Positions 38,575-54,166 of a DNA stretch of 64,000 bases are shown piece by piece. The stretch's first letter is position 1. Each line of letters opens with the position of its first letter. Position numbers and translations under genes: made by a program. This DNA is from Parvibaculales bacterium (lineage in GTDB: Bacteria > Pseudomonadota > Alphaproteobacteria > RS24). Below the pieces are notes generated by a model. That model saw only the letters and a list, made by a program, of their open reading frames with translations, searched no databases and was not told the origin of the DNA. The stretch lies in NCBI GenBank assembly GCA_049597955.1, contig JBMYND010000006.1, positions 19,928 to 83,927 on the forward strand, given 5' to 3'.

Positions 38575-38592
38575 AATGACGCCTGTGTCATT
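38575..38592. promoter_or_regulatory. Palindromic operator AATGACGC-CT-GTGTCATT upstream of the second P450 gene
   Basis: Same motif as 37119-37136 with one substitution. Arms extend to AAAATGAC/GTCATTTT (38573-38594). 22-39 nt upstream of the start. Confidence 0.6.
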
Positions 38593-38675
38593 TTGATAAT
38601 ATATCTGCAAAACGGCGCGCTTCAAGGGCCGAGATAGGGCGTTAAGTTTGCGGTTCATCGCCCCCAATACGCCTC

Positions 38676-38703
38676 TTGAAATTATGGTCATGCAGGATAT
38701 AAC
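38676..38703 (+). promoter_or_regulatory. Candidate promoter of tRNA-Ser
   Basis: TTGAAA (38676-38681), 16-nt spacer, TATAAC (38698-38703), 11 nt before the tRNA 5' end. Confidence 0.45.
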
Positions 38704-38714
38704 ACACGCCATGC

Positions 38715-38804
38715 GGAGAGGTGCCGGAGTGGTCGAACGGGGCGGTCTCGAAAACCGTTGTGCCTTTGCGGGTACCGAGGGTTCGAATCCCTCTCTCTCC
38801 GCCA
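38715..38804 (+). tRNA. tRNA-Ser (anticodon CGA), class II with a long variable arm, encoded CCA
   Basis: Hand-folded. Acceptor GGAGAGG/UCUCUCC, anticodon stem GCGGU/ACCGU, loop CUCGAAA, T arm GAGGG-UUCGAAU-CCCUC, terminal GCCA. Confidence 0.95.
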
Positions 38805-38838
38805 TACATTCTTTTAAGTTATTGTTTTATATTGTAAA

Positions 38839-39276
38839 TTAGCTGGCGCACCAGGGTTTTTTGCCGGGCTTATAAAGCCGCGCCAAATCCGCCCCCATCA
38901 GCGCACCGGCCAAATCGCCCTTGCCGCTTTGCACCGCCGCCAGCAAGCGGCCATAACGCCCGCGCCCGCGCACGTCCAGCATGACCGGCGGCACGGAAAG
39001 CCAATCGGCGGCAAAGGCTTTGGCGGCGCGCGCAAGGCGCTTTTCGCGGTCGCATTTGCCCCGCAATTCCGGCGTATCAATATCGGCCAGGCGCACGCGC
39101 ACATGAAAACCCTGCCCGTCAGCCAGCGCCAGAACAGCATCAAATGTGTCACCGTCAATCACCCGAATATCGCTCACCTGCACTTGCAAACCGCGATTTT
39201 TCCAATCGGCGGCATGGACATTGGCGCTCATATGGGCCGGTGCGAGCATGAGCAACACAAATATAAAATATCGCAT
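38839..39276 (-). CDS. Thermonuclease (staphylococcal nuclease-like) family protein, secreted
   Basis: VIDGDTFD...VRLADIDTPE motif. Signal peptide MRYFIFVLLMLAPAHMSANVHA. Start at M11 of the ORF. Confidence 0.8.
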   Translation of the reverse strand: MRYFIFVLLMLAPAHMSANVHAADWKNRGLQVQVSDIRVIDGDTFDAVLALADGQGFHVRVRLADIDTPELRGKCDREKRLARAAKAFAADWLSVPPVMLDVRGRGRYGRLLAAVQSGKGDLAGALMGADLARLYKPGKKPWCAS

Positions 39277-39333
39277 TCCTACTCCCTGACCCCGCGCCAC
39301 TGCCAACAGGGCAGCAGCGCGAGTGCCGGGGCG

Positions 39334-39461
39334 TTGAAAACCGACACGTTCATCGGCGCGACGTATTCGCGTAAAGCATTATTCCGCCACCGCCCCGACA
39401 GGGCGGCGAGGTGTTATTTAAGAAACGGCCCTCCACCGTTTCGAACGTGTTGGGTTTTCAA
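39334..39461. other. Structured about 128-nt intergenic element: a long-range inverted repeat enclosing three local hairpins
   Basis: TTGAAAACC-G-ACACGTTC (39334-39351) pairs with GAACGTGT-TG-GGTTTTCAA (39443-39461), 17 bp. Inner hairpins at 39357-39371, 39390-39406 and 39422-39442. Confidence 0.45.
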
Positions 39462-39566
39462 GCCCGGTGCAATATGCACGTTCACACATTGCCATGCTTC
39501 TCACCCTTTTGGCCAATTTTTTCCGCGCGGGTTTTAGGCATGGCGGGTTTGACAGGACGCGGCGCC

Positions 39567-40706
39567 CTATGGCCGGTCGAGCGGCAGCTTATACAGCAAT
39601 TCGCGGCGACCTTGGTCATTGATGACGGCAAAGCGCATTTCGGCGGCCCTTGGGTCAATCTCAATCAGCGAAAAACTGCCGGTTTTGACGTAAAGCGGTG
39701 AGATTTGCAGCGCGTCTTGCTCATTCGCCGACCTCCAGGGCGCATTGGCCGAGCCGACCGTCAATTCGGTGAATTGCTCTTGCGTGCCATCGGCACGGGT
39801 GACCGGTTCGGAGCGGTAAAAGGCACTGATATGCCGGTCGCCGGAAACAAAGGCCGCAACACCGCCCTTGCGCGCCGCCACAGCCTGCAAAAGCCGCCTG
39901 CGCTCCAACGGAAAATTGTGCCATTTTTCAAAACCGTGGTCGCGCGCCAGCACTTGAATGGAAGACACAATCAGCCGCACATCCGCCGGTTGCGCCAATT
40001 CCTGCTTCAGCCATTGCCATTGCGCCTTGCCGAGCATGCTGGCGGCGGCATCCATATTAACGGCATAGCGGAGGCCGCGCACCACGCGGTCATAAAAGCT
40101 GGCGCGGGTCAACGGCGCACGAAACCAGCGCGTATCAAGCATAATGACTTGCACATCAACCCCGCCAATCCGCCGACGGAAACTGTGATACAGGCCGGGG
40201 CGGAAGCGGCGCGGGTCATTATCGGCCACATTGAAATGCTCAAGAAACAGCGCCTTTGCCGCCTGTTTATGCGGATAATCAGCCCCGCCATCATTGCGGC
40301 CATAATCATGGTCATCCCAAATCGCCTCAATTTCGGCAAAGGCTGACAGGTTAAACTTGCTGGCCGCCATGCGATAGGCGGCTTTAAGATTGGCCAAATC
40401 AGCCGTTTCACTGTCGCCATAAACATTGTCGCCGAGCATCAGCAAAAGCGAGGGGTAAGTGTTGGCGATTTGCGAAACAATCGACGCATCGCGCTTTTGG
40501 TCAAAGCAGGAAACCAATGCCATTGTAAAAGGCGCCATTGAGGGGGGAGTGTCGGCGGCAATCAACCCACCGGCCAAAGTCTCGCGCATGACCGGCGCAG
40601 GCAGCGCGCCCTCGCTTTGGGCATGGGCGGCAGTGGCCATGAAGCCGGCCAGCATCAGGCAAAGCAGCCATGTGTATGTTGAATTCATCATGCTTGATTG
40701 TGTCAT
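39567..40706 (-). CDS. PhoD-like alkaline phosphatase/phosphodiesterase (metallophosphatase), secreted
   Basis: LLMLGDNVYGD, IWDDHDYGRNDGG, VSGDRH. N-terminal signal peptide ending AHAQ. Confidence 0.8.
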   Translation of the reverse strand: MTQSSMMNSTYTWLLCLMLAGFMATAAHAQSEGALPAPVMRETLAGGLIAADTPPSMAPFTMALVSCFDQKRDASIVSQIANTYPSLLLMLGDNVYGDSETADLANLKAAYRMAASKFNLSAFAEIEAIWDDHDYGRNDGGADYPHKQAAKALFLEHFNVADNDPRRFRPGLYHSFRRRIGGVDVQVIMLDTRWFRAPLTRASFYDRVVRGLRYAVNMDAAASMLGKAQWQWLKQELAQPADVRLIVSSIQVLARDHGFEKWHNFPLERRRLLQAVAARKGGVAAFVSGDRHISAFYRSEPVTRADGTQEQFTELTVGSANAPWRSANEQDALQISPLYVKTGSFSLIEIDPRAAEMRFAVINDQGRRELLYKLPLDRP

Positions 40707-40730
40707 GACTTATTGTGCCAAAGCTGAGCA

Positions 40731-40769
40731 TAAAATGAAAGGCGGCCTGTCAAATTGTGACAGGCCGCC
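40731..40769 (-). terminator. Rho-independent terminator downstream of the 40794-43982 TBDR gene
   Basis: 12-bp perfect stem GGCGGCCTGTCA (40741-40752) / TGACAGGCCGCC (40758-40769), then TTTCATTTTA on the minus strand. Confidence 0.75.
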
Positions 40770-40793
40770 CTGAACATTTTTGCGAGCAAAGGC

Positions 40794-43700
40794 TCAGAAG
40801 CGATATTTTACACCCAGCTTCACTGCCCACAAAGATACATCTGAATTAACCGAAGACACGGTTGGCGTGCTGAGATTTGAATAGGTGATGGTTGTGCCAT
40901 CATCGCTTAAATCGCCGTCAACCACATTTATCATGCGCGGAAAACCGGGTTCATCCAACACACCCCAATCGCTGTTCAGGAAATTGGTCAGATTTTTCAT
41001 CACGAAATAGGCTGATGCTTGGCCATAGCGGTCATCTTTATACAATTCCTGCTCGGCATAGAGATCAATTTTGAAGAAATCGCTGCCCTCAAGCGAATTG
41101 CGGGGCAAAACCTGACCCGCATAGGCCATTGCACCAACTTCGCGCAAATAGTCGAAGAAACGCTCTGTCTGCGCAGCATTCGTGGCCGCATCATCACTGA
41201 AGTTGAAATTGACCAACGGGTCATTTGCCCCGGTAGGAATATACATCAGCTTGGAAGATGTCCGGAAAATTTGGTTGAGACCAAATGAACTTCCGCGGTC
41301 ATATTTATAAGTCAGGCTATAGGGACGCCCCGTATTGCCATTGCCCGACAGCGAGAATTTCGTTTTGCGGTTGGGCATGAACTCAGTTTCATAACGAACA
41401 CGGAATGTGTAGCGATTTTCGACGCTGAAATTGGTGCGCGACAAATTGCGGGCTTCCGGGTCGTTAAAAGCACTATTCATATAGTTGGAAAAAGCTACTG
41501 AACTGGTCATGGAATGTGTGTCTTCAGCGTCCACATGAGCGTAGGAGACAACCCAGCTTAACCCATTATCATATTCGCGACCAAGGCTTGCCGACAAAGT
41601 CAGGCTTTTGCTTTCACCAGAATTGGTCAGCACCCAAGCATCGGGGCTTGCGACATCATCATAGGTTGGGAACAAACCGCCAAGAGCTGTGCCACTGGCC
41701 TGTGCTTCGGAGGCCACAATTCCGGCCTGATCGTCCGATTGTGAAATCAGCAGGTCGAAATTAAGCACATATTCACCCAGCAATTGCGTGCCGCCAATGG
41801 CATATTTCCATTCAGTCGGTATGTCGAAATTCGGATCAAGCACATTCATTTCAAAACCCGGCGAACCGGTGCCGGCCACAAGCGCATTATAAAGGTCGGT
41901 TGGTGTGCCATAGCCCGGGCAGGGTGCCGTCTGACCGCCACGACAATTTGACCAGGCAATGTCAAACAATGTGTTATCCGCCGCAAAGTCTCGCTGGCTG
42001 GGTTGCAATTGGGTCAGGAAATCGCCGGTCATATTATTGGAAATCCAGACTGTCGGATTACCGCCCCCAAATTGACCAATACCACCCCGCAAAGTGAGCA
42101 CATCTGACATGTCATAGGTCACGCCAAGGCGCGGCAAGAGAAGGCTTTTACCATCCAGATTGGCAGTATTTGCATAGCCATAGGCATCAACAAAATCACT
42201 GTTGAGCTGCGGCGTGTCATCCATTTCATACCACTCATAACGCAGGCCCGCGACAAGCTCCAATTTGTCCATAACCATTGTGTTCTGCACAAAGGCCGTA
42301 TTCACTGTATAGCCCCAATCAGCAGCAGCATCGGCGACATTGCCTGACGGTGCATTGCCGTAATACAGAACATTGGCAATACCGGCTTCAAAATCGGCAA
42401 TTGAGTCAAAGCGGGTTTCCGTCAAATTATGTTGCACAAAAATATTGTAAATGTCAGACGCCTCACGCTCATAACCGAACAGCAATTGGCCATATGCGCT
42501 GTCGTAAAACGCTTTGGCCGACAAGGTGGTCGTGTCATAGGCCATGCTGTTGGCGTGGCGGCTGTCATCCGAGCCAATATAGACAGTTGCCTCATCATTA
42601 TTGGCATTGGCCACATCAATTTGCATTTCGCCGAACACCAGACCATCTTTTGAAATCTGACGGTTTTTCAGGTCAAAAAAGCTGTAATTAAATTCGGTCG
42701 ATAATTTGTCCGACCATTGTGACTTCAGTGAAGCGCGATACGAAGTCATTTCCGCGCCGCGCTCATAGAGATGTTTGTCAAATTCAAACTCATTCGCATC
42801 ACCGTCGGATTCAGAAATATTGAAGCCATCATTATAATTATAGACCAAACCAATTTGGTGGCGGTCATCGAGCAAATAATCAAGTTTGATGAGATATTTT
42901 GTGTCATCGACAGGCACTGAAGCTGGCGTGCCGCCGACATCATAACCATATACGTCACGCGCAATACGGATAATGTCATTATAATTGGCTTGCGTCAGAC
43001 CGGCGACCGGCTCTGCAGCTCCTGACGTCTCGTGACCGCGCTTGAAAATATCCTCGCCGGAAAAGCTTTCATAATTAATATAGAAAAACGCCTTGTCCTT
43101 GATGATTGGGCCTCCGAAAGAAAAGCCCATTTTATCTTCCGAATAAGAAGCGATATTGACCGACTGGCCCTGCAACTCATCGCCTTGCAGGCTGTCACTG
43201 GCCATTTCAAAAAAGAATGAACCGCCGAATTCATTGGTGCCGGACTTGGTTACCGCATTGATGTTACAACCGGAAAAGCCACCATATTGAACATCGAAAG
43301 GGGCCAACTCAACAGCAATAGTTTGCAAGGAATCATAAGAGAAAGGCATGCGTTGTGTGGGATAGCCATTGGAATTCAGACCAAAGCCATCATTCATGCG
43401 AACGCCGTCAACCGTTGTGCTGTTAAAGCGCGGGCTGGCACCGGCACATTGAACGGAGTTGACAAAACCCTCATCCACCCAAAGACGTGGGTCAGATTTA
43501 ATCATATCGACCAAATCCCGATTATAGGCAGCTGCCGTATCCAAATCCTCTTCCGAGAAAACGGCGGACGGGCCGGTTGCCAATTGCGCAATTGAAATCG
43601 CTTCGGCCTGCACAACCACCTCATCTGTGGCTGATGCCGGTTGCAGCGTAATATCGGCGGAGGCGGTTTCACCGAGACTGAGGAAAATGCCAGTCACTGT

Positions 43701-43982
43701 GCGGGCGCGATAATCTGCGTCGGCCACAATGACTTCATAAGGGCCACCAATGTTCAAATTTGGCAGTGTCACCAAACCATCTGCATTGGTGCGGCCACGC
43801 CGGGTCGCGCCTGTTCGCGTATCGCGAATAACGACTTCAATATTCGCGCCGGGCTGGCCAGCATTATCCAGCAAACGGGCGCGAAATGCCGAAGATGTGT
43901 CTTGCGCCATGACCGATGGTGCGGCCATGGTCAGTGCAAGAGCAATTGAAACTTTAGGTAAAAACTTGTTCAGAGGGGCCAT
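40794..43982 (-). CDS. TonB-dependent receptor with N-terminal carboxypeptidase-regulatory-like domain (Oar-like)
   Basis: 1062 aa. Signal peptide, then RARLLDNAGQPGANIEVVIRDTRTG...DGLVTLPNLNIGGPYEVIV. C-terminal GVKYRF. Confidence 0.85.
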   Translation of the reverse strand: MAPLNKFLPKVSIALALTMAAPSVMAQDTSSAFRARLLDNAGQPGANIEVVIRDTRTGATRRGRTNADGLVTLPNLNIGGPYEVIVADADYRARTVTGIFLSLGETASADITLQPASATDEVVVQAEAISIAQLATGPSAVFSEEDLDTAAAYNRDLVDMIKSDPRLWVDEGFVNSVQCAGASPRFNSTTVDGVRMNDGFGLNSNGYPTQRMPFSYDSLQTIAVELAPFDVQYGGFSGCNINAVTKSGTNEFGGSFFFEMASDSLQGDELQGQSVNIASYSEDKMGFSFGGPIIKDKAFFYINYESFSGEDIFKRGHETSGAAEPVAGLTQANYNDIIRIARDVYGYDVGGTPASVPVDDTKYLIKLDYLLDDRHQIGLVYNYNDGFNISESDGDANEFEFDKHLYERGAEMTSYRASLKSQWSDKLSTEFNYSFFDLKNRQISKDGLVFGEMQIDVANANNDEATVYIGSDDSRHANSMAYDTTTLSAKAFYDSAYGQLLFGYEREASDIYNIFVQHNLTETRFDSIADFEAGIANVLYYGNAPSGNVADAAADWGYTVNTAFVQNTMVMDKLELVAGLRYEWYEMDDTPQLNSDFVDAYGYANTANLDGKSLLLPRLGVTYDMSDVLTLRGGIGQFGGGNPTVWISNNMTGDFLTQLQPSQRDFAADNTLFDIAWSNCRGGQTAPCPGYGTPTDLYNALVAGTGSPGFEMNVLDPNFDIPTEWKYAIGGTQLLGEYVLNFDLLISQSDDQAGIVASEAQASGTALGGLFPTYDDVASPDAWVLTNSGESKSLTLSASLGREYDNGLSWVVSYAHVDAEDTHSMTSSVAFSNYMNSAFNDPEARNLSRTNFSVENRYTFRVRYETEFMPNRKTKFSLSGNGNTGRPYSLTYKYDRGSSFGLNQIFRTSSKLMYIPTGANDPLVNFNFSDDAATNAAQTERFFDYLREVGAMAYAGQVLPRNSLEGSDFFKIDLYAEQELYKDDRYGQASAYFVMKNLTNFLNSDWGVLDEPGFPRMINVVDGDLSDDGTTITYSNLSTPTVSSVNSDVSLWAVKLGVKYRF

Positions 43983-44020
43983 AATTTACTCCTGTCATGG
44001 GTCAGTATGTAAAACCACCC

Positions 44021-44042
44021 AAACGCGACAAAAACGCGACAA
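44021..44042. promoter_or_regulatory. Two perfect tandem 11-bp direct repeats (AAACGCGACAA x2) in the TBDR / S1-P1 nuclease divergent promoter region
   Basis: Read directly. The minus strand reads TTGTCGCGTTT TTGTCGCGTTT. The 11-bp phasing is typical of winged-helix response-regulator sites. Confidence 0.4.
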
Positions 44043-44124
44043 TACTGTTGACTTATTGTGATTTAGAAAAATTTCATACAATTCAAGTGGATTTTTATTC
44101 ATTTAGATATTTATCTAAATAGAG

Positions 44125-44934
44125 ATGAAAATTATTTTTCGAAACAAAATTTCGGTATTGATAATGTTGGCAGCTATGGCCGCGCCGGCACCGGCATGGG
44201 CGTGGGGTAAAACCGGCCATAGGGTCACGGCCGCAATAGCTGAAGATTTGCTCAATGCCTCGGCCAGGGCAGAAATTCGTCGCCTTTTGGGCCGCGAAAC
44301 CCTCAGTGAGGCCGCCGTTTGGCCAGATTTCATGCGATCCGACCCGTCTCCCTTCTGGCAGAAAACATCATCGCCTTTGCATTATGTCACTATTCCGGAC
44401 AATCGCCGCTACAGGGAAACCAAGCCGCCGGTTAAGGGTGATGCCATGACGGCGCTGGCGAAATTTACCTCTGATTTGCAAGACGCGCAGGCCAAACAAG
44501 CTGATAAGGCGCTGGCGCTCAAATTTATTATTCACATTATTGGCGATTTACACCAACCCTTGCATGTTGGCCGCCCCGGCGATGCTGGCGGTAATTTAAT
44601 AAATGTGACCTATTTTGGCACGCGCACCAATTTGCACCGGTTGTGGGACAGCGATATGATTGACGGCGAAAAACTCTCTTTCAGCGAATATGCCACTTTG
44701 TTGAAACAGAGTTACATGCCGCAAGAGGCGGCCGCACTGGCCGGGCTTATGGTCACTGACCCTCATGTCTGGATAAACGAAAGCCAGGCAATACGTGCCG
44801 AACTTTATCCCAAAAGCGACACCAAACTTGGCTATGACTATTTTTTTTCCCATCGCGACACGCTGCGCCAGCGTCTGTGGCAGGCTGGGGTGCGCATTGC
44901 CGCCTATCTCAATATGATATATGACGCGCCGTAA
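44125..44934 (+). CDS. S1/P1 nuclease family protein, secreted
   Basis: Mature N-terminus WGKTGHRVTAAIAE after the signal peptide. HIIGDLHQPLH. WDSDMI. Confidence 0.85.
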   Translation: MKIIFRNKISVLIMLAAMAAPAPAWAWGKTGHRVTAAIAEDLLNASARAEIRRLLGRETLSEAAVWPDFMRSDPSPFWQKTSSPLHYVTIPDNRRYRETKPPVKGDAMTALAKFTSDLQDAQAKQADKALALKFIIHIIGDLHQPLHVGRPGDAGGNLINVTYFGTRTNLHRLWDSDMIDGEKLSFSEYATLLKQSYMPQEAAALAGLMVTDPHVWINESQAIRAELYPKSDTKLGYDYFFSHRDTLRQRLWQAGVRIAAYLNMIYDAP

Positions 44935-44935
44935 G

Positions 44936-45355
44936 TCAGGTGACGACTTTGTCAATATGCAGCGCCTTGTAAATACCCAATTCTGTCCAGTATTTTTCAT
45001 TCATTTCATTGGCTTCAATAATACGTATTGTCAGGCTTCTGACCAGCGCCCGCAAAACCGGGTCAGCCTCGGCCATGCGTGCTTTCATGGAGGCCGCGCT
45101 CAACACATTAATCACACAATCCGTGGCCGCAACCGCACTGGCCGAACGGTGATGTTCACTCAGCACAGAGGCCATTTCCCCGAATAATTCGCCTTCGCCC
45201 ATTTCAGACAGTTTCAGCCCTTCGCGGGACATAATATGCACCGTGCCGGAATGTATCAGGTAAATCTCATCGCCGTCTGTATCAATGTCGAAAATTACAT
45301 TGCCGGCCTTATAGGCGACAGTTTTTACATTTTTTGCCAGTGCTTTTTCGCTCAT
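44936..45355 (-). CDS. Stand-alone cyclic nucleotide-binding domain protein
   Basis: 139 aa. Phosphate-binding cassette GELFGEMA...RSASAVA. No additional domain. Confidence 0.8.
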   Translation of the reverse strand: MSEKALAKNVKTVAYKAGNVIFDIDTDGDEIYLIHSGTVHIMSREGLKLSEMGEGELFGEMASVLSEHHRSASAVAATDCVINVLSAASMKARMAEADPVLRALVRSLTIRIIEANEMNEKYWTELGIYKALHIDKVVT

Positions 45356-45449
45356 GCCGCAACTCCATAGACTTTTAACCTAGCACATAACTGGTTACGA
45401 CGGAAAAGCCGGTATTGTTAATGCGCCACCAGGCAAGACCGGCAAAGCG

Positions 45450-46760
45450 TTAAGAGGCGGAATTGCGCTTTTCTTCGGCCAAACGCCGCTCAATTGACCG
45501 AATCCAACGAAACGCATCCTTGGCCACATCATCATCATCACCAGCTTTGCGAAACGCTTTAATCGCTTCATCATAGGCTTCAATGCGGGTGCGGGCTATG
45601 CCGAGCAAAAGCCAAGTATTGGCCTCATTGTCAAGCCCGCCCTTATCCAGCGCCTTTTCAAGCGCAGTGCTGGCTTGTTTCCATTTTTCATCCTGCAAAT
45701 AGGATTGGCCCAATTGCTCATAAAATGTGCCTTTGTCGGATTTTTCAGCAGCAATGGTCAGCGGCTTGACGGCTTTTTTCCACTCGCGCGAATGCATGAA
45801 GCTATTGGCCAAAAGCTCGTAATTTTTCTCGGTTTTTTCAATTGTGCCGTCTTCCAGACCTTTTTCAAGAATCTGCGCCGCCTTAATCGGTACGCCATGA
45901 TAGAGATAAAGCTGCGCCATGCTGGACAGTTCTTTTGAGCTGGTCAACATGCCCTGCACAAACATGGCCTGTTGCGCCACAAACGCCATTTTCTCGTCAT
46001 CGGCGTCATAATAAATAACAGTCAATTGCTGCCAGAAGATTTTTTCGCCCGGCCAACGCTCAACCGCATCTTCCAGCACGGGACGCGCATCCTTATATCT
46101 TTCCTGCTGCAACAAAATGGACAGCAAAATCCGCGTCCAATTCTTTTTCGGTGCCTCAACCATGGAAAGCGCCTGGCGGATGGCTTGCTCGGATTTCGGC
46201 AAATCTTCAAGTATCAGATGAATCTGCGCTTTCAGGCCATAAGCATCAGCCGGTGGCTCGCCCTCGAAATTGGCAAACCATTGCTCAAGCAATTGCAGTG
46301 CCTTGCGATTATTGCCTTCGGCCAGATTGAGTTGCGCCAGATTATAGGTCAAATCATTGACCACGCGGGGCGGCAATGCACCCGTCGCAATAGCGCGCTC
46401 AAATGTTTGCAAGGTCATTTTATAATCACCCTGCCCGGCATAAATAAAGCCCATTGTCTGAATCGCGACGGCTTTTTCATAAGGTTTGAATTTATCGCTG
46501 TCGATGACCGCCTGCAATGGCACCATAGCCTCGGCATATTTTTCCTCACCCATCAGAATCTGGGCTTCTTCAATCCGCTTAAATGCGGCTTTGCCCAATA
46601 CTTCCGAACGCCGTGTCTGTGGTTTGGAGGGTTTTTCCTTTTTCTTTTCTTCCTGCGCCTGCGCTTCGGCCATATGCGGCGCGATAACCGGCAGGGCTAA
46701 TAAACCACCAAAACCAAGAGCCGTGGCAAGGGCAAATTGCAAAGCAAGCTGGCGACGCAT
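45450..46760 (-). CDS. Tetratricopeptide repeat protein (TtpD-like member of the TonB2-type cluster)
   Basis: Signal peptide and multiple TPR-like helical repeats. Last gene of the DUF3450-MotA/TolQ-ExbB-ExbD-TonB string. Confidence 0.75.
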   Translation of the reverse strand: MRRQLALQFALATALGFGGLLALPVIAPHMAEAQAQEEKKKEKPSKPQTRRSEVLGKAAFKRIEEAQILMGEEKYAEAMVPLQAVIDSDKFKPYEKAVAIQTMGFIYAGQGDYKMTLQTFERAIATGALPPRVVNDLTYNLAQLNLAEGNNRKALQLLEQWFANFEGEPPADAYGLKAQIHLILEDLPKSEQAIRQALSMVEAPKKNWTRILLSILLQQERYKDARPVLEDAVERWPGEKIFWQQLTVIYYDADDEKMAFVAQQAMFVQGMLTSSKELSSMAQLYLYHGVPIKAAQILEKGLEDGTIEKTEKNYELLANSFMHSREWKKAVKPLTIAAEKSDKGTFYEQLGQSYLQDEKWKQASTALEKALDKGGLDNEANTWLLLGIARTRIEAYDEAIKAFRKAGDDDDVAKDAFRWIRSIERRLAEEKRNSAS

Positions 46761-46777
46761 TCTATCCTCCTGCCGAG

Positions 46778-47392
46778 CTAATCGGCTATCTCAAAACTGA
46801 TAAGTTGGCGCACACCATAACGGGTTTGCGCGCGGCCATCTTCAACCATAGGTTTATATTTCCACCGCTTCACCGCATTAATCGCCGAACGGTTGAAAAT
46901 ATTGGGTGGATCGGCCTCAACGACAATCGGGTCAATCGCCAGACCAAGCTCACTAATGGCAAATTCCAGCAACACCCAGCCTTCAATACCGCGCGACAGG
47001 GCGCGGGTCGGGTAGCGCGGCAAAACCCGCACAATGGCCAGCGCATCGCCATCCACCGGCGCGTCGAGATTCATGCCGCCAAGGTCAAACTGGCCCAAAT
47101 CGGCCGACATGGATGCATTATTGGCATTGGGGCGGCTGACATCATTCAGCTTGGGCGGCGGCGGCGGCTCGTCAGGCTGTTCTTTTGACGGACGCTTGGG
47201 CGCACGGCTTTTGGTGTTCACATCTTCATCGCGCTCAACCCGCACAAAATCAATGCCAAGGCTGGCAATTTCTTCTTCAATTTCATAATCGCGCCCGGTG
47301 ACCAGCACTTTCATGGTCAAAAACAGCACCATGGTGGCGACCAGCGCCGAGCCATAGACAATCAGCATACGCGGGGCGATAAAGGCGGGCAT
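46778..47392 (-). CDS. tonB: Energy transducer TonB
   Basis: N-terminal TM helix, Pro-rich spacer KEQPDEPPPPPK, C-terminal TonB_C-like YPTRALSRGIEGWVLLEF. Confidence 0.85.
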   Translation of the reverse strand: MPAFIAPRMLIVYGSALVATMVLFLTMKVLVTGRDYEIEEEIASLGIDFVRVERDEDVNTKSRAPKRPSKEQPDEPPPPPKLNDVSRPNANNASMSADLGQFDLGGMNLDAPVDGDALAIVRVLPRYPTRALSRGIEGWVLLEFAISELGLAIDPIVVEADPPNIFNRSAINAVKRWKYKPMVEDGRAQTRYGVRQLISFEIAD

Positions 47393-47395
47393 TGG

Positions 47396-47797
47396 CTATT
47401 TTTCCTCCGCCGCAATTGAAATGGCACCGACACCGGCCAGTCGCACCTGATCCATAATTTCGACCAGCACGCCGGTTTGCGCGCCTTTATCAGCCTGAAT
47501 CACAGCCCCGCCTTGCGGGTTTTCCGCATGCAGGCGCTCCACATTGGCACGCACAGCCGCCAAATCAACCTGACGGCGATTAATCCAAACCTCATTATTG
47601 TCGCGAATGGCAATCAGAATACCGACGCGCGATTGTTTGACGGCGGTTTCAGCATCCGGTCGCGTCACATCAATACCGCTTTCCTTGACGAAAGTGGCGG
47701 TGACAATGAAGAAAATCAGCATGATAAACACAATGTCCAACATGGGTGTCATGTCGATGGCTGTGTCATCTTCCTGTTTGGCATGTCTACGACGCAT
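47396..47797 (-). CDS. exbD: Biopolymer transporter ExbD
   Basis: IDMTPMLDIVFIMLIFFIV. Start chosen at the second Met (47797; AAAGGGGA RBS). An alternative start is at 47833. Confidence 0.85.
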   Translation of the reverse strand: MRRRHAKQEDDTAIDMTPMLDIVFIMLIFFIVTATFVKESGIDVTRPDAETAVKQSRVGILIAIRDNNEVWINRRQVDLAAVRANVERLHAENPQGGAVIQADKGAQTGVLVEIMDQVRLAGVGAISIAAEEK

Positions 47798-47843
47798 AAT
47801 ATCCCCTTTTGCCGGCCCGGCGGGCCGTTTCATCCCTTAAAGA

Positions 47844-48395
47844 CTAACCCAAATCCAAGTCGTCTTCCAATTGTTCCACCGACCGACCGGCCATACGTTC
47901 GAGTGTCGAGGTGAAAAACAGCCCCGACAACGCCACCACCATGCCTGCCATAGTCGGCAAAGTGGCCTTTGAAATGCCCGATGCCATAGCGCGGGCATTG
48001 CCCGAGCCGGTCACCGCCATCACGTCAAAAACCTCGACCATGCCGGTCACAGTGCCCAACAGCCCCAGAAATGGCGCCAGCGCGACCAATGTCTTGATAT
48101 AGCCAAGATTGGCCTGTGCCTTGACCCGCGCATCGGAAATAATCATTTCCCGAATCCGGTGGGCATGCCAGCTTTTATGCTCCGGACGCTGCTGCCATTC
48201 GGCAATGCGGGCTTCAGCCAGCCGCTTGAAATCGCCGCGAAAATAGCTGAAGCGTTCAAAAATAAGCAACCACAGCACCAGCGTTTCCAGCATAATCAGC
48301 ATCAGCACGTCGCCACCCATTTCGAGGAAATCGCGCACGCCGCGAATGGCCTCGAAAGGGTTCACAAACATCCAGATGATATCGTTGAATTCCAT
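47844..48395 (-). CDS. exbB: MotA/TolQ/ExbB proton channel protein
   Basis: APFLGLLGTVTGMVEVF signature. Three hydrophobic helices. Confidence 0.85.
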   Translation of the reverse strand: MEFNDIIWMFVNPFEAIRGVRDFLEMGGDVLMLIMLETLVLWLLIFERFSYFRGDFKRLAEARIAEWQQRPEHKSWHAHRIREMIISDARVKAQANLGYIKTLVALAPFLGLLGTVTGMVEVFDVMAVTGSGNARAMASGISKATLPTMAGMVVALSGLFFTSTLERMAGRSVEQLEDDLDLG

Positions 48396-48407
48396 CTGAC
48401 CGACGCC

Positions 48408-49793
48408 CTATTTGCTCTCTGCATGTTGGGCAATCATGCCCGCAGCCTGTTCTTCGAGAATTTGCACAATCTCTCTTGAACGCGCCGAGGCGACTGAATG
48501 CAGCAACAAAATCGGAATGGCAACCACCAGCCCCAAAACCGTTGTTATCAGAGCTTGCGAAATACCACCGGCCATCAGCTTGGGGTCCCCCGTGCCGAAC
48601 AGCGTAATTGCCTGGAAGGTCAAAATCATACCGGTCACCGTGCCGAGCAGACCCATCAGAGGCGCGACACCCGACAGGAGTTTCAGCAAGGCGAGATATT
48701 TTTCCAGCGCCGGCATTTCCTTCAAAATAGCATCATCAAGCTTAAGCTCCAGCGTCTCGACATCGGCCGAACTATTGGACTGGTATGCCGCCCAAACGCG
48801 CCCCAAGGGTGTATCACCACTGGCCTGACCGCTTTTCAACTGCTTGCGCACTTGACGCGATGTCAGGGTCAGGCGGGTAATCCGCTCCAGCGCGACAGCG
48901 ACGCCAAACAGGCCGAGCCCTATAATAATATAGCCGACCAAACCGCCCTGATTGATGCGCTCAACAAGGGTTGGCATTTGCAAGAACAGGTTCAAAATCG
49001 CCCCGCGTGACGGGTCAACCGGCGCGGCAACAATCTCGCCGGCATCGCCATCAAGCAAATCATCGGCAGCGTCACCAAAACGTGCCGGTGGCTGGCGACC
49101 CAAATCGGCAAACCGGTTATTGCCGGCATAGCGGACAAATTGCCCGTCAGCCAAAGCGGTGAACGGGCCAACGCGCAGCACTTCGCTTTCGCGCACTGTG
49201 CCGTCAAGGTTGACCACTTCACCGGCAAAGCGTTTCACCTCGCCTTGGGCAGTCATTTCCTGTTGCAGAGCAAACCAGAGATATTCAAGCTGCTCCATTG
49301 CGGGCAGACCCTTGGTCTGGGCCAGCTTGGCCAGCGGCTCCGAACGGCCTTTAATTTCGCCGGAAATCACGCTTTCATCGACTTGCGCCCGTGTCTCCCC
49401 GGCAACTTGGCGGACAATGCCGAACAATTCGCCAAACACGCCCAAACGCTCATTCAGCAAGCCTTCCAATTCGGCCAGCTTGAGCTCATTTTCGTTAAAC
49501 TCGCCTTCGAGGCGCTCACTGCGCGCTTCCTCGCGGGAAATCGCCCTTTGCGTCTGTGTCAGCAGGGCTTTTTGACGGTCGCGATTTTTGCGGAACTCCG
49601 CTTCGCGCTGCTCGAAGAAAGAATTATCGGTCACCCGGCCATTGCGCACTTGGTCAAGCAATTGTTGCAGGGTTTTGGCATCCGCATCGCCGGATGGGCC
49701 AGCCTCTTGCGCCATTGCCGGCGGCAGGCTTGCCGCCAAGCCAAAAGCGACGAGCAGACAGACAGTTGAAATCAGTTTGGTCAATTTGGTCAT
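48408..49793 (-). CDS. Large MotA/TolQ/ExbB family protein with periplasmic N-terminal extension (TtpC-like)
   Basis: 461 aa. Signal peptide, coiled-coil N-domain, C-terminal APLMGLLGTVTGMILTF channel motif. Confidence 0.8.
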   Translation of the reverse strand: MTKLTKLISTVCLLVAFGLAASLPPAMAQEAGPSGDADAKTLQQLLDQVRNGRVTDNSFFEQREAEFRKNRDRQKALLTQTQRAISREEARSERLEGEFNENELKLAELEGLLNERLGVFGELFGIVRQVAGETRAQVDESVISGEIKGRSEPLAKLAQTKGLPAMEQLEYLWFALQQEMTAQGEVKRFAGEVVNLDGTVRESEVLRVGPFTALADGQFVRYAGNNRFADLGRQPPARFGDAADDLLDGDAGEIVAAPVDPSRGAILNLFLQMPTLVERINQGGLVGYIIIGLGLFGVAVALERITRLTLTSRQVRKQLKSGQASGDTPLGRVWAAYQSNSSADVETLELKLDDAILKEMPALEKYLALLKLLSGVAPLMGLLGTVTGMILTFQAITLFGTGDPKLMAGGISQALITTVLGLVVAIPILLLHSVASARSREIVQILEEQAAGMIAQHAESK

Positions 49794-49805
49794 GTCCGCG
49801 TCCCC

Positions 49806-50561
49806 TTATTTAACCGTTACCGGCACGACCATCAGGTCAGGCGCCGCTTGTTGTTTGGCGATACGCAGCGCACTGCGCAAATCGCTGTTAAAGGCGCCGT
49901 CAAGGTCAACAAAACTCTTGCTGTCCTGGCTCCAAACGCCGCTTTTGGCGCCATCCAATGTTTGATAAATCAGCGCAACACGGCCAATCCGCAGGAAAGA
50001 CACGGTGCGCGCCGCGCCGTCAATTTCCATTTCGCCTTCATAGGCTTCAATCGTGCGGCCATATTCATTTTCAATTTCATAAGCTTCGAGGATTTTGCGA
50101 TATTTCTCAGCCGGATTGGCATCCGAGCGATCCATCAAGGCCGACAAATTGGCGACCCGCGCCTTGCGCTCATCCAACATGAATGGCACATCAAGCGAGA
50201 CAAACACCTCAAGCGCCTCAATCATCCGAAACATAAGCGGCATGATGGAGCGGTCAACATTGGTGACATCTTCAATTTGCTGGCGAATGGAGACCATTTC
50301 CGCCTTTTGTGCGCCAATCAACTTTTCAAGCTGGGCATTATATTCGCGCAAGGAAGCCAATTGCTTCAACGCGGCGCGATATTCGCGCACCAAACCATCG
50401 GTTTCGTCATCCAATTGGTCAATCCGTCCTTGCGAAGCGACGCCTTCGCTGGTGCCGGATTGGGCAATTTGGACAACATTGTTCAGCTTCTGCGCATGTG
50501 CCAAGGAAACAGAAACAGCAATAGCGCAGCTCGCCATTAAAAGGCGGTGATAAAAAGTCAT
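49806..50561 (-). CDS. DUF3450-like periplasmic coiled-coil protein (TtpB-like)
   Basis: Signal peptide MTFYHRLLMASCAIAVSVSLAHA, coiled-coil region. First gene of the TonB2-type cluster. Start at M42 of the ORF. Confidence 0.7.
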   Translation of the reverse strand: MTFYHRLLMASCAIAVSVSLAHAQKLNNVVQIAQSGTSEGVASQGRIDQLDDETDGLVREYRAALKQLASLREYNAQLEKLIGAQKAEMVSIRQQIEDVTNVDRSIMPLMFRMIEALEVFVSLDVPFMLDERKARVANLSALMDRSDANPAEKYRKILEAYEIENEYGRTIEAYEGEMEIDGAARTVSFLRIGRVALIYQTLDGAKSGVWSQDSKSFVDLDGAFNSDLRSALRIAKQQAAPDLMVVPVTVK

Positions 50562-50729
50562 TGAACCCCCCACAGGTTTGGTCAGCAATGTGTTACAGAC
50601 GGAACCCTCCCCGACACTCACCGCAGGGTGCGGGTGAATTGCCAATTTCAGAAAGGGTCTGACGTTTTCGCACACTAGCGGCACTTAACATCCAATTCAA
50701 GAGCCGACTTATGAAAATCATGAAAATGT

Positions 50730-50758
50730 AAAAAAAGGGGCGACCCAAAGGCCGCCCC
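50730..50758 (-). terminator. Rho-independent terminator downstream of the 50782-53916 TBDR gene
   Basis: GGGGCGACC-CAAA-GGCCGCCCC stem (one mismatch) followed on the minus strand by TTTTTTT. Confidence 0.75.
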
Positions 50759-50781
50759 TTCAAGATTTACTGAAGTTCAGC

Positions 50782-53700: not shown

Positions 53701-53916
53701 CATCTCGGTAATTGATGGGCTACCGACATCAAATAAATCCTGATCGTTCATAACATCCACCGGCAATGGCGCATCGCCTGGTGTCTGCTTGATATAGGAA
53801 CCGGTTACCACCACTTCCTCGACAGCCCCGTCCTGTGCCAGTGCCGAGGTCGATGCCATCAGCACCGCCGCGAGACCGACCAGACCGGTTCGTCTAACCT
53901 GTCTTAAAATATCCAT
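50782..53916 (-). CDS. TonB-dependent receptor
   Basis: Signal peptide, TonB box EEVVVTGSY, plug NINLRGLGSGRNLVLLNGRR, C-terminal GLKHSF. Start at M65 (GGGAGGA RBS). Confidence 0.9.
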   Translation of the reverse strand: MDILRQVRRTGLVGLAAVLMASTSALAQDGAVEEVVVTGSYIKQTPGDAPLPVDVMNDQDLFDVGSPSITEMIKSMNTSSGTDGETNQFQSNGLEGTSNINLRGLGSGRNLVLLNGRRNVFHPYAIAEQAQLFVNTNNIPSIAIQRVETLKDGAAATYGSDAISGVVNFITRSDFEGLEVTASHKSIDGSDGDQDFGLIYGTSLNGGNTRIVASFGMNTRSQLMVKDRDWAIHERAENGNFTGYSSSPHPGSYVGVDANGLPIEATKYIDPDCANVVGYFPLHHFSNINVPAYLAYAGVGLLDTPLASGSGDPTAATGASAATNSSRCTYNYTYFDNLIEEEERTNAFVEFEHQLGDMTLSGELLMAETDVPNWYTSPTYPPQTDYDTDPRISRVVKSDHPGLVDMLAEFPDSALATYVNANCALGTDADCLYYRGRPFGASGPGETRGSRNYKTNRLVLALDGSRGDIDYTTSFTYSTSEGNNRSYDTITERWSAAIEGLGGPNCDRATGTPGAGDCYYYNPFTNAIQYGQQKYTSYTAGNPNPNYNADVANNTDVLIPWMTEPLGSKVDSELTVFDAVFTGPGFSDMVSWAAGIQLRSENYDIAPLATTDLNQYPCRTDAENTEFRNSGRTYSNAQGTDNCAGADGIFGGAGAADDYQGAGRYIFLAGTTPSSQSQDITALFGELAISPSDELDIQLSARYEDYGSSIGSSFDPKVAVRYQLADSITLRGSASTTFRGPTLNQLSGRGTSLSYVNALGTFKAVDTDGNPDLEPESANTFNVGAIFQMEDALRENDSIFASVDYWSFNFKDPIIKENFNSIVSNVFPGNVGSAAADYYNRITCGTGGCDGLSVATLSRINVKIINGPDIDTDGLDIAVKYGFDLFDGRAEISANATQVMSYDVAEGALPSALTQYGGDAVGRLNDDMSFLRPIVEWKAKLGARYALDRHVVNLVMNYTDSYKDSESIVGIPLVARMIEEHTTYDLHYNVDVSDMLNSDGSALYLSVYNIADEDPPMVRRDLSYDPYTHNPFGRMVKLGLKHSF

Positions 53917-54040
53917 TATTTCTAATGTCCTCCCTAAAATGCGGGTCGGCGAAAAACCGACCTGCACAACTCTAGCTTTCAAAAATCTGATAACACAATT
54001 AGGGGTTGAGTATTTTTCGCGCCATTCCCATCGGTGTGAT

Positions 54041-54061
54041 GCATTTTTGCAACAAAAATGC
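54041..54061. promoter_or_regulatory. Palindrome GCATTTTTG-CAA-CAAAAATGC in the TBDR/oxidoreductase divergent intergenic region
   Basis: 9-bp perfect arms, followed by direct repeats CATAAATC (54062-54069, 54072-54079). Confidence 0.3.
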
Positions 54062-54166
54062 CATAAATCTTCATAAATCATGGCATTATGCTGGTCAGCC
54101 ATTGCCAAAATCGCGTCAATTCAGACCAGCACCCGCCATGAAGCGAGGAAAATGAGAGGAAACCGC

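Follow-up and report, generated by a model that had tools for sequence, protein, structure and literature searches.

The window, the 64,000-nucleotide stretch of DNA that we analysed, carries between positions 38839 and 44934 four genes, which encode an SNase-type nuclease, a short PhoD-family phosphoesterase, a 1062-residue Oar-type TonB-dependent transporter (TBDT) and, divergently transcribed, an S1/P1 nuclease. These genes and families had been proposed in an initial sequence-only reading, and they stand at the positions given there: each family is backed by Pfam, the motifs quoted occur in the translations, and catalytic or transporter motifs are intact in all four proteins. The signal peptides reported on all four also hold up; judged by eye, every N-terminus looks like a Sec type I signal peptide, with neither a lipobox nor a twin-arginine motif.

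The SNase-type (thermonuclease-family) gene (38839..39276, minus strand; PF00565, 33.6 bits against a cutoff of 21) adjoins a tRNA-Ser(CGA) gene (38715-38804). Its mechanically called open reading frame runs to 39306 (38839-39306(-)), and the true start is likely the ATG at 39276, which matches public gene calls and gives a protein of 145 residues with a Sec signal peptide (…NVHA/AD). The catalytic residues are kept, with D21, R35, D40, T41, E43 and Y85-G-R87 matching S. aureus nuclease in alignment, and against PHROG the protein hits an endonuclease family (phrog_452, E=6.7e-19). The PhoD-like protein (39567..40706, minus strand, 379 residues; PF09423, 62.5 bits against a cutoff of 27) lacks the PhoD_N domain, and its signal peptide is Sec rather than Tat. 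A profile built from 39 of its homologues matches Bacillus subtilis PhoD (PDB 2YEQ), to which the SC, GDNVY, WDDHD and GDRH motifs, all invariant, can be aligned. One homologue with 55% identity belongs to a PhoD-PhoX-S1/P1 cluster; behind this cluster come ABC-transporter genes, one of them with a phosphonate-binding domain.

The S1/P1-family zinc nuclease/3'-nucleotidase (44125..44934, plus strand, 269 residues; PF02265, 202 bits) has its signal peptide cut before W27, so that mature W1 directly follows an AWA signal-peptidase site. Nine zinc-ligand positions are invariant in 34 homologues. The best solved relative is SmNuc1 of Stenotrophomonas maltophilia (PDB 8qjl; E=7.6e-37, 130.5 bits), to which the HxxGDxHQPxH block aligns; it too is bacterial, carries a signal peptide and is a three-zinc enzyme. 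SmNuc1 prefers RNA and has very high 3'-nucleotidase activity, although the paper leaves its biological role and genomic context aside (PMC11705217). Such activity would complement the products of the SNase. The family had been described in the sequence-only reading as mainly eukaryotic and patchy in bacteria, but among 6111 candidates scored we found 2930 homologues at E<=0.001, and since those with names are bacterial (Sphingomonas, Marinicauda, Woeseiaceae) it is not rare there.

The TBDT (40794..43982, minus strand; CarboxypepD_reg 46 bits, OMP_b-brl_4 81.8 bits, Plug 23.5 bits, slightly below its cutoff of 23.9) consists of a signal peptide, a CarboxypepD_reg N-terminal extension, a TonB-box-like DEVVVQA (consensus EEIVVTA across the alignment), a plug, a large beta-barrel and a C-terminal Phe. 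It has 5200 homologues in the protein collection, of which the best non-self match is only 46% identical, and nothing above that value occurs there even though the assemblies of close relatives are included. The protein is an equidistant outlier, with about 45% identity to all homologues against a mutual median of 52% among them, so transfer of function from the homologues is uncertain. An AF2 model (pLDDT 77, pTM 0.76) matches TBDT structures in Foldseek, best of all FusA (4zgv, E=3e-27) and YddB (6ofr). Both translocate large substrates, but they are only 10-12% identical to the window protein, lack the CarboxypepD_reg extension and take ferredoxin-type proteins. Next to the S1/P1 gene is a Ton energising cluster (44936..54108, minus strand), recognised from its open reading frames and from Pfam matches obtained for its genes on identical contigs (L001-L004). 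It comprises a TonB-dependent receptor (TBDR; 50782-54108), DUF3450, two ExbB, ExbD, TonB, a TPR protein and a cNMP-binding protein (44936-45355); it is kept in relatives and could energise the TBDT.

The locus is not one operon but has at least three transcription units, because the S1/P1 gene is divergent from the TBDT gene (with 142 bp of AT-rich spacer between them), PhoD and SNase are 260 bp apart, and a hairpin stands after the stop codon of the TBDT and before the start of PhoD. This intrinsic-terminator-like hairpin (40739..40771, minus strand; inverted repeat I10) has a 14-bp stem with 9 G-C pairs, followed by the T-rich tail TTTCATTTT, and the ATG of PhoD comes only 32 nt beyond it (40707-40738). 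The coordinated route that had been envisaged thus keeps its enzymes and transporter, which are real and apparently functional, and loses the single operon. The placing of degradation outside the cell was an assumption only, because every signal peptide is type I; the enzymes may be periplasmic.

Comparison with the closest genomes showed that the locus has a mosaic origin. By blastn against relatives (L007-L010) and alignment of the junctions, we found that the TBDT and S1/P1 genes occupy a 4.27-kb presence/absence segment (40665..44934). Relatives with about 91% DNA identity have the PhoD-SNase pair at the same site (PhoD 92% identical) without this segment; in them, a terminator stretch of about 100 bp stands between PhoD and the cNMP-binding gene. 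The TBDT and S1/P1 genes are therefore an indel beside a conserved PhoD-SNase pair, and the four-gene set is a recent mosaic. The four-gene linkage is not conserved, which speaks in part against the coordinated route: the arrangement is confined to contigs of the same population, and in the loci compared the linkage of SNase has no support beyond close relatives. What does recur elsewhere is pairs of the genes. The divergent S1/P1-TBDT layout is also present in Microbulbifer (L025, L070), TBDT-PhoD in Marinicauda and Oceanicaulis, and PhoD-S1/P1 in locus L011, and a metagenome locus (L133) has TBDT, PhoD and S1/P1 in one direction. In the reverse test, of 47 S1/P1 loci for which 6 kb or more was available, only 3 had such a TBDT.

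Enzymes of several unrelated folds, namely nucleases, nucleotidases and phosphatases, recur beside homologues of the TBDT. Scoring three genes on either side in 74 loci of the closest homologues (41-46% identity) from species-representative genomes, we found such an enzyme in 37, although related genera (Idiomarina/Pseudidiomarina, Woeseiaceae) inflate these numbers and the gene calls are home-made. The enzymes are EEP type A (21) and type B (9), which are not necessarily nucleases, 5'-nucleotidase (6), e(P4)/class-B acid phosphatase (5), S1/P1 (4) and PhoD (3). Also nearby are PpnN, a nucleotide nucleosidase, in 4 loci, AMP nucleosidase in L135 and L141, and in 3 loci a cytosine/purine permease. 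The esterase-bearing loci show several distinct gene arrangements across Alpha- and Gammaproteobacteria, many of them in marine bacteria, and many of the EEP, 5'-nucleotidase and e(P4) proteins have lipoboxes, which gives a PUL-like layout.

The homologues are also associated with phosphate regulation. A sense-oriented Pho box is present at the 5' end of the TBDT gene in 27 of 77 gene-called loci, compared to 37 of 904 other genes (odds ratio 12.7, p=1.4e-15). Several loci have three phased repeats, the Brevundimonas homologue (L027) has tandem boxes, and in 8 loci phoB is within three genes of the TBDT. In the window, none of the three upstream regions contains a consensus Pho box (CTGTCAT-N4-CTGTCAT), and none of the relatives has a Pho-box-like site at PhoD and SNase. 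There is, 39-60 nt upstream of the TBDT ATG (44021..44042, minus strand), a perfect 11-bp tandem direct repeat of TTGTCGCGTTT, which has the Pho-box architecture of a 7-mer and a 4-nt spacer, with TACATA 9 nt further on. It ranks 55 of about 128,000 positions by a PWM whose origin is circular, being drawn from Pho-box-like sites upstream of the TBDT homologues; with about 0.18 such matches expected in the region, the repeat is mildly unusual and, alone, weakly distinct. Because it has more than three mismatches to the consensus, we regard it only as a candidate PhoB site.

Transporters with comparable neighbours are known in other bacteria. The ddbABCDEF locus of Bacteroides thetaiotaomicron is a TBDT-based DNA-utilisation locus with secreted and periplasmic nucleases beside the TBDT, for which cutting of DNA and import of fragments by a PUL-like logic have been proposed (PMC12478041). 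It differs from our locus in belonging to Bacteroidota, in combining a SusC-type DdbC and the lid lipoprotein DdbD (the window has no SusD/DdbD-like gene), in using other nuclease families with no phosphatase, in the type I (SPI, not SPII) signal peptides of the window enzymes, and in being tied so far to nucleobase production rather than phosphate stress (PMC12478041). In Flavobacterium, the PusCD transporters of PUS I-III are induced by Pi starvation and lie beside phosphodi- and monoesterases, and their presumed role is to scavenge phosphodiesters, nucleic acids included; the Pi-induced pf13620 TBDT Fjoh_3841 shares the CarboxypepD_reg domain of the window TBDT (PMC8115612). These are Bacteroidota SusCD-like pairs, however, and their induction was measured whereas ours is only inferred. 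The PhoB regulon of Caulobacter crescentus, an alphaproteobacterium, includes several TBDRs, exonucleases, phosphatases and a phosphodiesterase, the TBDRs "likely mediating uptake of alternative phosphate donors" (PMC11208175); the likeness lies in the regulon, and the paper gives no substrate or gene-neighbourhood logic. The belief that no TBDT for nucleic-acid-derived substrates had been characterised is weakened by Ddb, although for Proteobacteria we found none in the literature searched.

Our preferred reading, to which we give a probability of about 0.5, is that the four genes form a mosaic locus for scavenging phosphorus from phosphoesters that derive from nucleic acids, with TonB-driven import. 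Under phosphate limitation the cell would make two Sec-exported nucleases, an SNase yielding 3'-phosphorylated products and an S1/P1 enzyme yielding 5'-mononucleotides and also stripping 3'-phosphates, together with the PhoD-family phosphodi/monoesterase. The TBDT, powered by the neighbouring ExbB-ExbD-TonB, would then bring across the outer membrane nucleotides or short oligonucleotides whose size or low concentration makes porins inadequate, to be trimmed in the periplasm to nucleosides and phosphate. Cargo, transport direction, enzyme location and Pho control in this organism are the parts that we infer. The scavenging role first suggested fits the linkage of TBDT homologues to nucleases, nucleotidases, phosphatases, Pho boxes and phoB.

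A possible, if doubtful, alternative is that the genes are co-regulated but mechanistically separate, the TBDT importing some other scarce compound (an organophosphate such as phytate or lipid head groups, polyphosphate, a peptide or a metal chelate) while the nucleases and PhoD act alone and their products enter by porins. Vibrio cholerae provides a model for this, freeing phosphate from extracellular DNA under Pho control with the secreted nucleases Xds and Dns and the periplasmic nucleotidases and phosphatases UshA, CpdB and PhoX, although its genes are dispersed, its enzyme families differ and the paper names no dedicated outer-membrane TBDT (PMC4714964). The Pho boxes and phoB tie the clade to phosphate stress and not to nucleic acids specifically, and the Caulobacter authors go no further than "alternative phosphate donors" (PMC11208175). 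In half of the homologue loci the three genes on either side include no esterase, those of Hyphomonadaceae having instead the order PMT_2-TBDT-PAD_porph, and in the window the terminator behind the TBDT and the separate units also suit independent action. Against this, the great majority of the informative neighbours are enzymes that act on nucleic acids or nucleotides and belong to several unrelated folds; nucleotide nucleosidases and a nucleobase permease are also present, and no phytases, lipases or peptidase sets were seen near the homologues.

That a horizontally moved TBDT-S1/P1 segment simply landed beside an unrelated PhoD-SNase pair and tRNA, with no joint function, we regard as unlikely. 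The indel, the separate units, an SNase that is unlinked outside close relatives, has phage- and plasmid-type relatives and adjoins a tRNA, and two relatives of the PhoD-like protein (about 40-47% identity) in unrelated contexts would all follow from chance. It does not predict the independent recurrence of TBDT-PhoD and TBDT-PhoD-S1/P1 adjacency (L015, L016, L063, L133) or of PhoD-S1/P1 in L011; immediate adjacency of single-copy-type genes occurs in 7 of 80 loci, where by a rough estimate about 0.05 is expected.

It is rather improbable that the TBDT works outward, taking PhoD, the nuclease(s) or both from the periplasm through the outer membrane. The model would be Oar of Myxococcus xanthus, which has the same architecture (signal peptide, CarboxypepD_reg extension, TonB box, plug and large barrel) and a Ton system nearby, but exports the protease PopC in development with no link to phosphate or nucleases (PMC6434023); the Ton cluster beside our TBDT resembles the oar-exbBD neighbourhood (PMC11658791). 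Export would equally well predict the adjacency of enzymes and TBDT, agrees with the protein-translocating FusA and YddB as closest folds, and would supply the route out that three enzymes with only type I signal peptides require. In the homologue loci, however, the neighbouring enzymes are often lipoproteins, for which a channel is unneeded, and the downstream nucleotide enzymes of periplasm and cytoplasm and the inner-membrane nucleobase permease fit inward flow. PhoD and SNase are also kept in relatives without this TBDT, and to our knowledge Oar-type export is known for one protein only.

Least probable of all is a non-nutritional role of the nucleases with an unrelated TBDT, whether in remodelling of biofilm DNA, competition or degradation of signalling nucleotides: SmNuc1 does cleave c-di-GMP, the role of bacterial S1/P1 enzymes is called unresolved (PMC11705217) and extracellular nucleases serve several known functions (PMC6085458), but nutrient scavenging is favoured by the association with Pho boxes and phoB and by the phosphatases and nucleotidases that neighbour the TBDT throughout the clade.

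On our preferred reading of phosphorus scavenging from nucleic acids, the Ddb locus and the Pho-induced TBDTs (PMC8115612, PMC11208175) make a scavenging TBDT less unprecedented than was first thought. By analogy, the locus is likeliest to be a proteobacterial counterpart of the Ddb and Pus loci of Bacteroidota.

The ORF list and Pfam scans of the window confirmed all four adjacent genes described in the sequence-only reading, and no NCBIfam model at the equivalog level gave a name to any of them. The SNase-family nuclease is encoded at 38839-39306 on the minus strand, with a probable start at 39276 that gives a protein of 145 aa, as in public gene calls; its Pfam match (PF00565) spans 78 of the 107 model positions. 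By BLASTP against the S. aureus nuclease A sequence, it conserves D21, R35, D40, T41, E43 and YGR87. We take D21, D40 and T41 of the staphylococcal enzyme to be Ca2+ ligands, and R35, E43 and R87 to be catalytic. The S1/P1 nuclease (44125-44934, plus strand; PF02265) aligns with the bacterial enzyme SmNuc1 (PDB 8qjl) at E = 7.6e-37, and its W27, directly after an AWA cleavage site, aligns to residue 1 of SmNuc1 (predicted mature Trp1). In an alignment of 34 S1/P1 homologues, W14 is nearly invariant (>=90%) and H19, D55, H73, H124, D128, H134, H158 and D162 are invariant (256-aa numbering); the protein appears to have the nine ligands of the trinuclear zinc site, with a putative correspondence to P1 numbering that we drew from their spacing.

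The PhoD-family phosphoesterase (39567-40706, minus strand, by Pfam) has all the core PhoD metal-ligand motifs (Cys, GDxxY, WDDH[ED] and GDxH). A profile alignment of its family to B. subtilis PhoD (2YEQ) keeps SC, GDNVY, WDDHD and GDRH, and these are invariant in 39 homologues. B. subtilis PhoD has a PhoD_N domain and is exported by the Tat (twin-arginine) pathway, whereas the window protein has no PF16655 (PhoD_N) match by Pfam and no RR motif at its N-terminus. It also differs in this respect from the canonical PhoDs that adjoin TBDT homologues at loci L006 and L133, which have PhoD_N and, in L133, an RR motif as well. We therefore regard it as best called a short PhoD-like subfamily, of putative specificity. 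Judged from their sequences, the active sites of the SNase, the S1/P1 and the PhoD-like protein look intact. All four N-termini read by eye as type-I Sec signal peptides, which upholds the earlier assignment of signal peptides to all four proteins, so export to the periplasm is likely; release of the enzymes outside the cell is an assumption.

The TonB-dependent transporter (TBDT; 40794-43982, minus strand, 1062 aa, by the ORF list and Pfam) has a barrel that matches OMP_b-brl_4 (81.8 bits), a borderline Plug match (23.5 bits against a cutoff of 23.9), and an N-terminal extension at residues 36-114 that belongs to the CarboxypepD_reg family (PF13620; 46 bits against a cutoff of 32.3). Like the window TBDT, Oar of Myxococcus has a CarboxypepD_reg extension fused to a TBDT barrel (PMC6434023). 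The AlphaFold (AF2) model has a pLDDT of 77 and a pTM of 0.76, and a Foldseek search with it hit 310 PDB chains at E <= 0.001; the top matches listed are all TBDTs, the best being the protein importers FusA (E = 3e-27) and YddB. The model is consistent with a 22-stranded beta-barrel closed by an N-terminal plug, the plug being the weaker half of the assignment because its Pfam match is below the cutoff and its residues 183-214 are modelled with low confidence. After the N-terminal extension comes DEVVVQA (column consensus EEIVVTA in 30 homologues), a candidate TonB box near the N-terminus of the plug, and TonB dependence is putative. Two plug-region cysteines, residues 179 and 239 (QCAG and GCNINAV), are invariant across the 30 homologues, which suggests a conserved plug disulfide in this clade. 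The window TBDT is an equidistant outlier, with about 45% identity to all homologues compared to a median of 52% among the others, and is only 29% identical to the TBDT of L133, a metagenome locus found from its S1/P1. Single-sequence PDB searches with the SNase, the PhoD-like protein, the TBDT and the EEP-family neighbours of its homologues gave no matches; finding structural relatives needed a profile for the PhoD-like protein and a fold search for the TBDT.

The four genes do not form one operon. The S1/P1 gene is divergent from the TBDT gene across a 142-bp spacer, a hairpin with a 14-bp stem and a T-rich tail lies 3' of the TBDT stop and 32 nt before the PhoD start, and a 260-bp gap separates PhoD from SNase, which is adjoined by a tRNA-Ser(CGA) gene (38715-38804). 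Directly upstream, on the same strand, is a Ton energising cluster (TBDR, DUF3450, ExbB, ExbB, ExbD, TonB, TPR protein and cNMP-binding protein). The S1/P1 and cNMP-binding genes converge at 44934-44936, where their stop codons lie 1 nt apart and have no terminator between them; in close relatives (L007-L010) the cNMP-binding gene is followed by a hairpin terminator of its own, which in the window was removed or replaced by an indel. The exact 12-mer CACAATAAGTCA occurs twice on the minus strand, at 40706-40717, where it abuts the PhoD start codon, and at 44049-44060, just 5' of a candidate Pho box in front of the TBDT gene; chance alone would give about 0.6 exact 12-mer pairs in 4.5 kb, and the two copies could be a shared promoter element or a coincidence. 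An Rfam scan yielded the tRNA and an antisense artefact only, with no riboswitch or leader. The artefact, a match to 'Plastid-psbl-rps4 3'UTR' at 38750-38801 on the minus strand (51 bits against a gathering score of 68), is antisense to tRNA-Ser and almost certainly arises from tRNA-like structure.

The remainder of the window is ordinary chromosome, including a beta-glucan utilisation cluster, dnaX, obg and opp-type ABC genes; the C-terminal domain of DnaX and the best hits point to a marine alphaproteobacterium as the probable source. The beta-glucan/laminarin-type cluster (1419-20355) has two GH16 genes, GH3, LacI and two SSF symporters, together with a TBDR (9933-13001), after which come SapC, Cupin_8 and two tryptophan-halogenase-like genes; we take this TBDR-SapC-cupin-halogenase cassette to be recurrent and functionally unexplained. 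Two cytochrome P450 genes and an SDR gene lie at 34963-38805, and one of the P450s scores 430 bits against the solanimycin SolI model (cutoff 850). A mechanical ORF at 37213-38805 overruns the tRNA-Ser(CGA) gene, so the true start of that P450 is later (public calls give 446 aa).

The four-gene set has a mosaic origin. We found the identical arrangement only in contigs of the same population; the conservation of the four-gene neighbourhood that the sequence-only reading had looked to is thus absent beyond this population, and it is the pairwise links that recur elsewhere. In the close relatives, which come from reef metagenomes (flanking DNA about 91% identical, PhoD 92% identical), the gene order is cNMP-binding gene, about 100 bp containing a terminator, PhoD, SNase, tRNA and P450 genes, and the 4.27 kb at 40665-44934 that carries the TBDT and S1/P1 genes in the window is absent. 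The best non-self TBDT in a collection of 5.8 billion proteins is only 46% identical, and because the relatives' assemblies are included in this collection, they have no TBDT orthologue, at least as assembled. The 4.27-kb difference is either a gain or a loss. A search for flanking repeats or mobile-element scars around the segment found only short, chance-level repeats, and we rejected GC content as a sign of horizontal transfer (0.45-0.51 in the segment, and the same in the neighbouring conserved Ton/TPR region). In two long-read relatives (L009 and L010) the TBDR, P450, TonB and PhoD genes are split into fragments, probably by uncorrected indel errors rather than as pseudogenes.

Using an alignment of 30 homologues, we retrieved 80 loci from species-representative genomes, all with a TBDT 41-46% identical to that of the window. 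Genes were called by home-made codon-usage scoring, longest-ORF calling having mis-called antisense ORFs in GC-rich loci. We made an unbiased Pfam count of the immediate neighbours at 74 loci, followed by clustering and labelling. Within +-3 genes of the TBDT there are EEP-family proteins of two types (21 and 9 loci), UshA/CpdB-like 5'-nucleotidases (6), e(P4)-like class-B acid phosphatases (5), S1/P1 (4) and PhoD (3), and one or more of these is present at 37 of the 74 loci, counts that depend on our gene calls and come from phylogenetically non-independent loci. The nucleotide nucleosidase PpnN (4 loci) and a cytosine/purine permease (3 loci) occur in the same interval. EEP neighbours are not necessarily nucleases, and at half of the loci the neighbours are of other kinds, such as PMT_2 and PAD_porph in Hyphomonadaceae. 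With our own HMMs we found S1/P1 immediately beside the TBDT at four loci: two in Microbulbifer (L025 and L070), where it is divergent as in the window, one in a Halieaceae MAG (L034), and one in Kordiimonas gwangyangensis (L060). PhoD is immediately beside it in Marinicauda and Oceanicaulis (L015 and L016) and, in the short form, in Kordiimonas sediminis (L063).

A reverse survey starting from S1/P1 in metagenomes found such a TBDT at only 3 of 47 usable loci, so S1/P1 is not generally TBDT-linked. In L133 the genes TBDT-PhoD-S1/P1 run in one direction, and in two further metagenome loci (L135 and L141) an AMP nucleosidase gene lies between S1/P1 and TBDT. A PhoD-like gene whose product is 55% identical to that of the window belongs to a PhoD-PhoX-S1/P1 cluster; ABC-transporter genes come next, and one of them encodes a phosphonate-binding domain. 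At two PhoD-like loci of more distant relationship, the surroundings are unrelated and show no sign of P scavenging. The SNase link does not recur outside the close relatives.

Many of the EEP, 5'-nucleotidase and e(P4) neighbours have lipoboxes, with lipoprotein nucleases and nucleotidases in Woeseiaceae and Cellvibrionales loci, and the homologue loci therefore resemble Bacteroidota utilisation loci in their logic. PUL, Pus and Ddb loci combine a TBDT with a surface lipoprotein and surface-anchored SPII hydrolases, whereas in the window all four proteins have SPI-type signals and, by the ORF list and Pfam, there is no gene for a SusD/DdbD-like surface substrate-binding lipoprotein at 38.8-45.4 kb. 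Any functional likeness of the window to these loci is at most an analogy.

Seven Woeseiaceae loci (L028, L030, L039, L061, L080, L092 and L093) share a compact arrangement in which a lipoprotein EEP precedes the Oar-type TBDT (7/7) and an unannotated 366-aa protein is encoded upstream in four (L039, L061, L092 and L093). An e(P4)-like lipoprotein phosphatase, a 5'-nucleotidase and a cytosine/purine permease are each downstream in some of them, and several have Pho-box-like sites. These gene sets would make up a nearly complete outside-to-cytoplasm nucleotide route. The Maricaulales/Hyphomonadaceae loci L014-L076 have a conserved synteny of PMT_2 (ArnT-like glycosyltransferase), TBDT, PAD_porph (agmatine deiminase-like) and CN_hydrolase; a Pho box often precedes the TBDT, and PhoD follows it only in Marinicauda and Oceanicaulis.

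The mark of the Pho regulon is a PhoB-binding Pho box, composed of 7-bp direct repeats in 11-bp phase, in place of the -35 region. We searched for sense-oriented CTGTCAT-N4-CTGTCAT with <=3 mismatches, and found matches at the 5' end of the TBDT in 27 of 77 loci, compared to 37 of 904 other genes of the same loci (odds ratio 12.7, Fisher p = 1.4e-15). Several of the sites have three 11-bp-phased repeats, and Pho boxes accompany EEP-TBDT pairs in Marinimicrobium/Gilvimarinus and Idiomarina. At eight loci phoB itself (362 bits to TIGR02154, cutoff 296) is two or three genes away from the homologous TBDT. Five of these loci are from Pseudidiomarina and the remainder from Pseudoteredinibacter and unclassified Gammaproteobacteria MAGs (together L035, L045, L051, L077, L078, L086, L089 and L091), and six have a phoB-EEP-TBDT(-TBDT) neighbourhood. 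In the window the same consensus has eight matches, none of them near the four-gene locus. A perfect tandem repeat of TTGTCGCGTTT, 39-60 nt upstream of the TBDT ATG, has Pho-box geometry with TACATA 9 nt downstream, and ranks 55th of about 128,000 positions by a PWM built from the homologue sites, a ranking that is circular in origin; as a candidate Pho box of the TBDT it is suggestive only. The regions upstream of PhoD and SNase, in the window and in its relatives, have background PWM scores. There is no room for a separate Pho box between the terminator and the PhoD start, and PhoD may be read through from upstream.

The best-supported reading of these gene families, TBDT fold, mosaic origin and comparative associations is a phosphate-stress scavenging locus for nucleic-acid-derived phosphoesters, for which we infer the cargo, the direction of transport, the location of the enzymes and the regulation. 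The nucleases would generate oligonucleotides and nucleotides, with SNase making 3'-phosphates and S1/P1 making 5'-NMPs; by analogy with SmNuc1, S1/P1 may also remove 3'-phosphates efficiently (PMC11705217). With energy from the Ton system encoded next to it, the TBDT would import the oligonucleotides or nucleotides, and the PhoD-like and S1/P1 activities would release phosphate in the periplasm. More broadly, we tentatively propose, with a probability of roughly 0.4, that a widespread Oar-type TBDT clade of marine Alpha- and Gammaproteobacteria is a Pho-regulated nucleotide/oligonucleotide importer whose partner enzymes are interchangeable: nucleases (EEP, S1/P1, SNase) together with nucleotidases or phosphatases (PhoD, UshA-like, e(P4)-like).

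One alternative is that the cargo of the TBDT is a different compound and that only its regulation is shared with the enzymes. The nucleases may also serve biofilm or signalling roles. Alternatively, the TBDT may work outwards and carry the enzymes across the outer membrane, in the way that PopC is exported by Oar (PMC6434023); import is favoured by what homologue loci encode, namely lipoprotein neighbours and downstream nucleotide enzymes of the periplasm and cytoplasm. A chance juxtaposition of the four genes may also be the explanation, but this reading is weakened by the independent recurrence of each of the pairs TBDT-PhoD, TBDT-S1/P1 and PhoD-S1/P1.

Dissolved DNA, RNA and nucleotides are a large share of the labile organic phosphorus in the sea. 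To our knowledge, the passage of nucleic-acid breakdown products at nanomolar concentrations across the Gram-negative outer membrane is poorly defined, and the only genetically characterised TBDT-nuclease system is the Ddb locus of Bacteroides. The sequence-only reading had been aware of no characterised TBDT for nucleic-acid-derived substrates; this was too broad, since TBDT-based DNA utilisation by Bacteroides ddbABCDEF has been shown genetically (PMC12478041), but it holds for proteobacteria in that our full-text literature searches found no description of a TBDT-nuclease association there. Pseudomonadota are described as taking up DNA via pilus-based systems (PMC12478041), and Flavobacterium has Pi-induced TBDT/phosphoesterase loci, one with a pf13620 TBDT (PMC8115612). 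The gene categories of the Caulobacter PhoB regulon are reported to include TonB-dependent receptors (PMC11208175), which like the Pho-induced ones of Flavobacterium are of unknown cargo. A review from 2024 has neither nucleotides nor DNA among the TBDT substrates that it lists (PMC11658791). The proteobacterial Oar-type version and the clade-wide pattern appear to be undescribed, the concept itself existing already, and the window is one rather atypical instance of the pattern.

The comparative pattern singles out a specific and widely distributed clade of proteobacterial TBDTs, present in culturable genera (Microbulbifer, Marinimicrobium, Gilvimarinus, Idiomarina, Kordiimonas, Brevundimonas and Marinicauda) in which the cargo is directly testable. 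For the bacterial S1/P1 nucleases, whose biological role is described in the literature as unresolved (PMC11705217), the pattern suggests one. If the proposal is true, the clade would be the first among proteobacterial TBDTs to have a cargo derived from nucleic acids, its loci would constitute a PUL-like 'nucleic-acid utilisation locus' outside Bacteroidota, and its transport activity would supply a missing step in the cycling of marine dissolved organic phosphorus.
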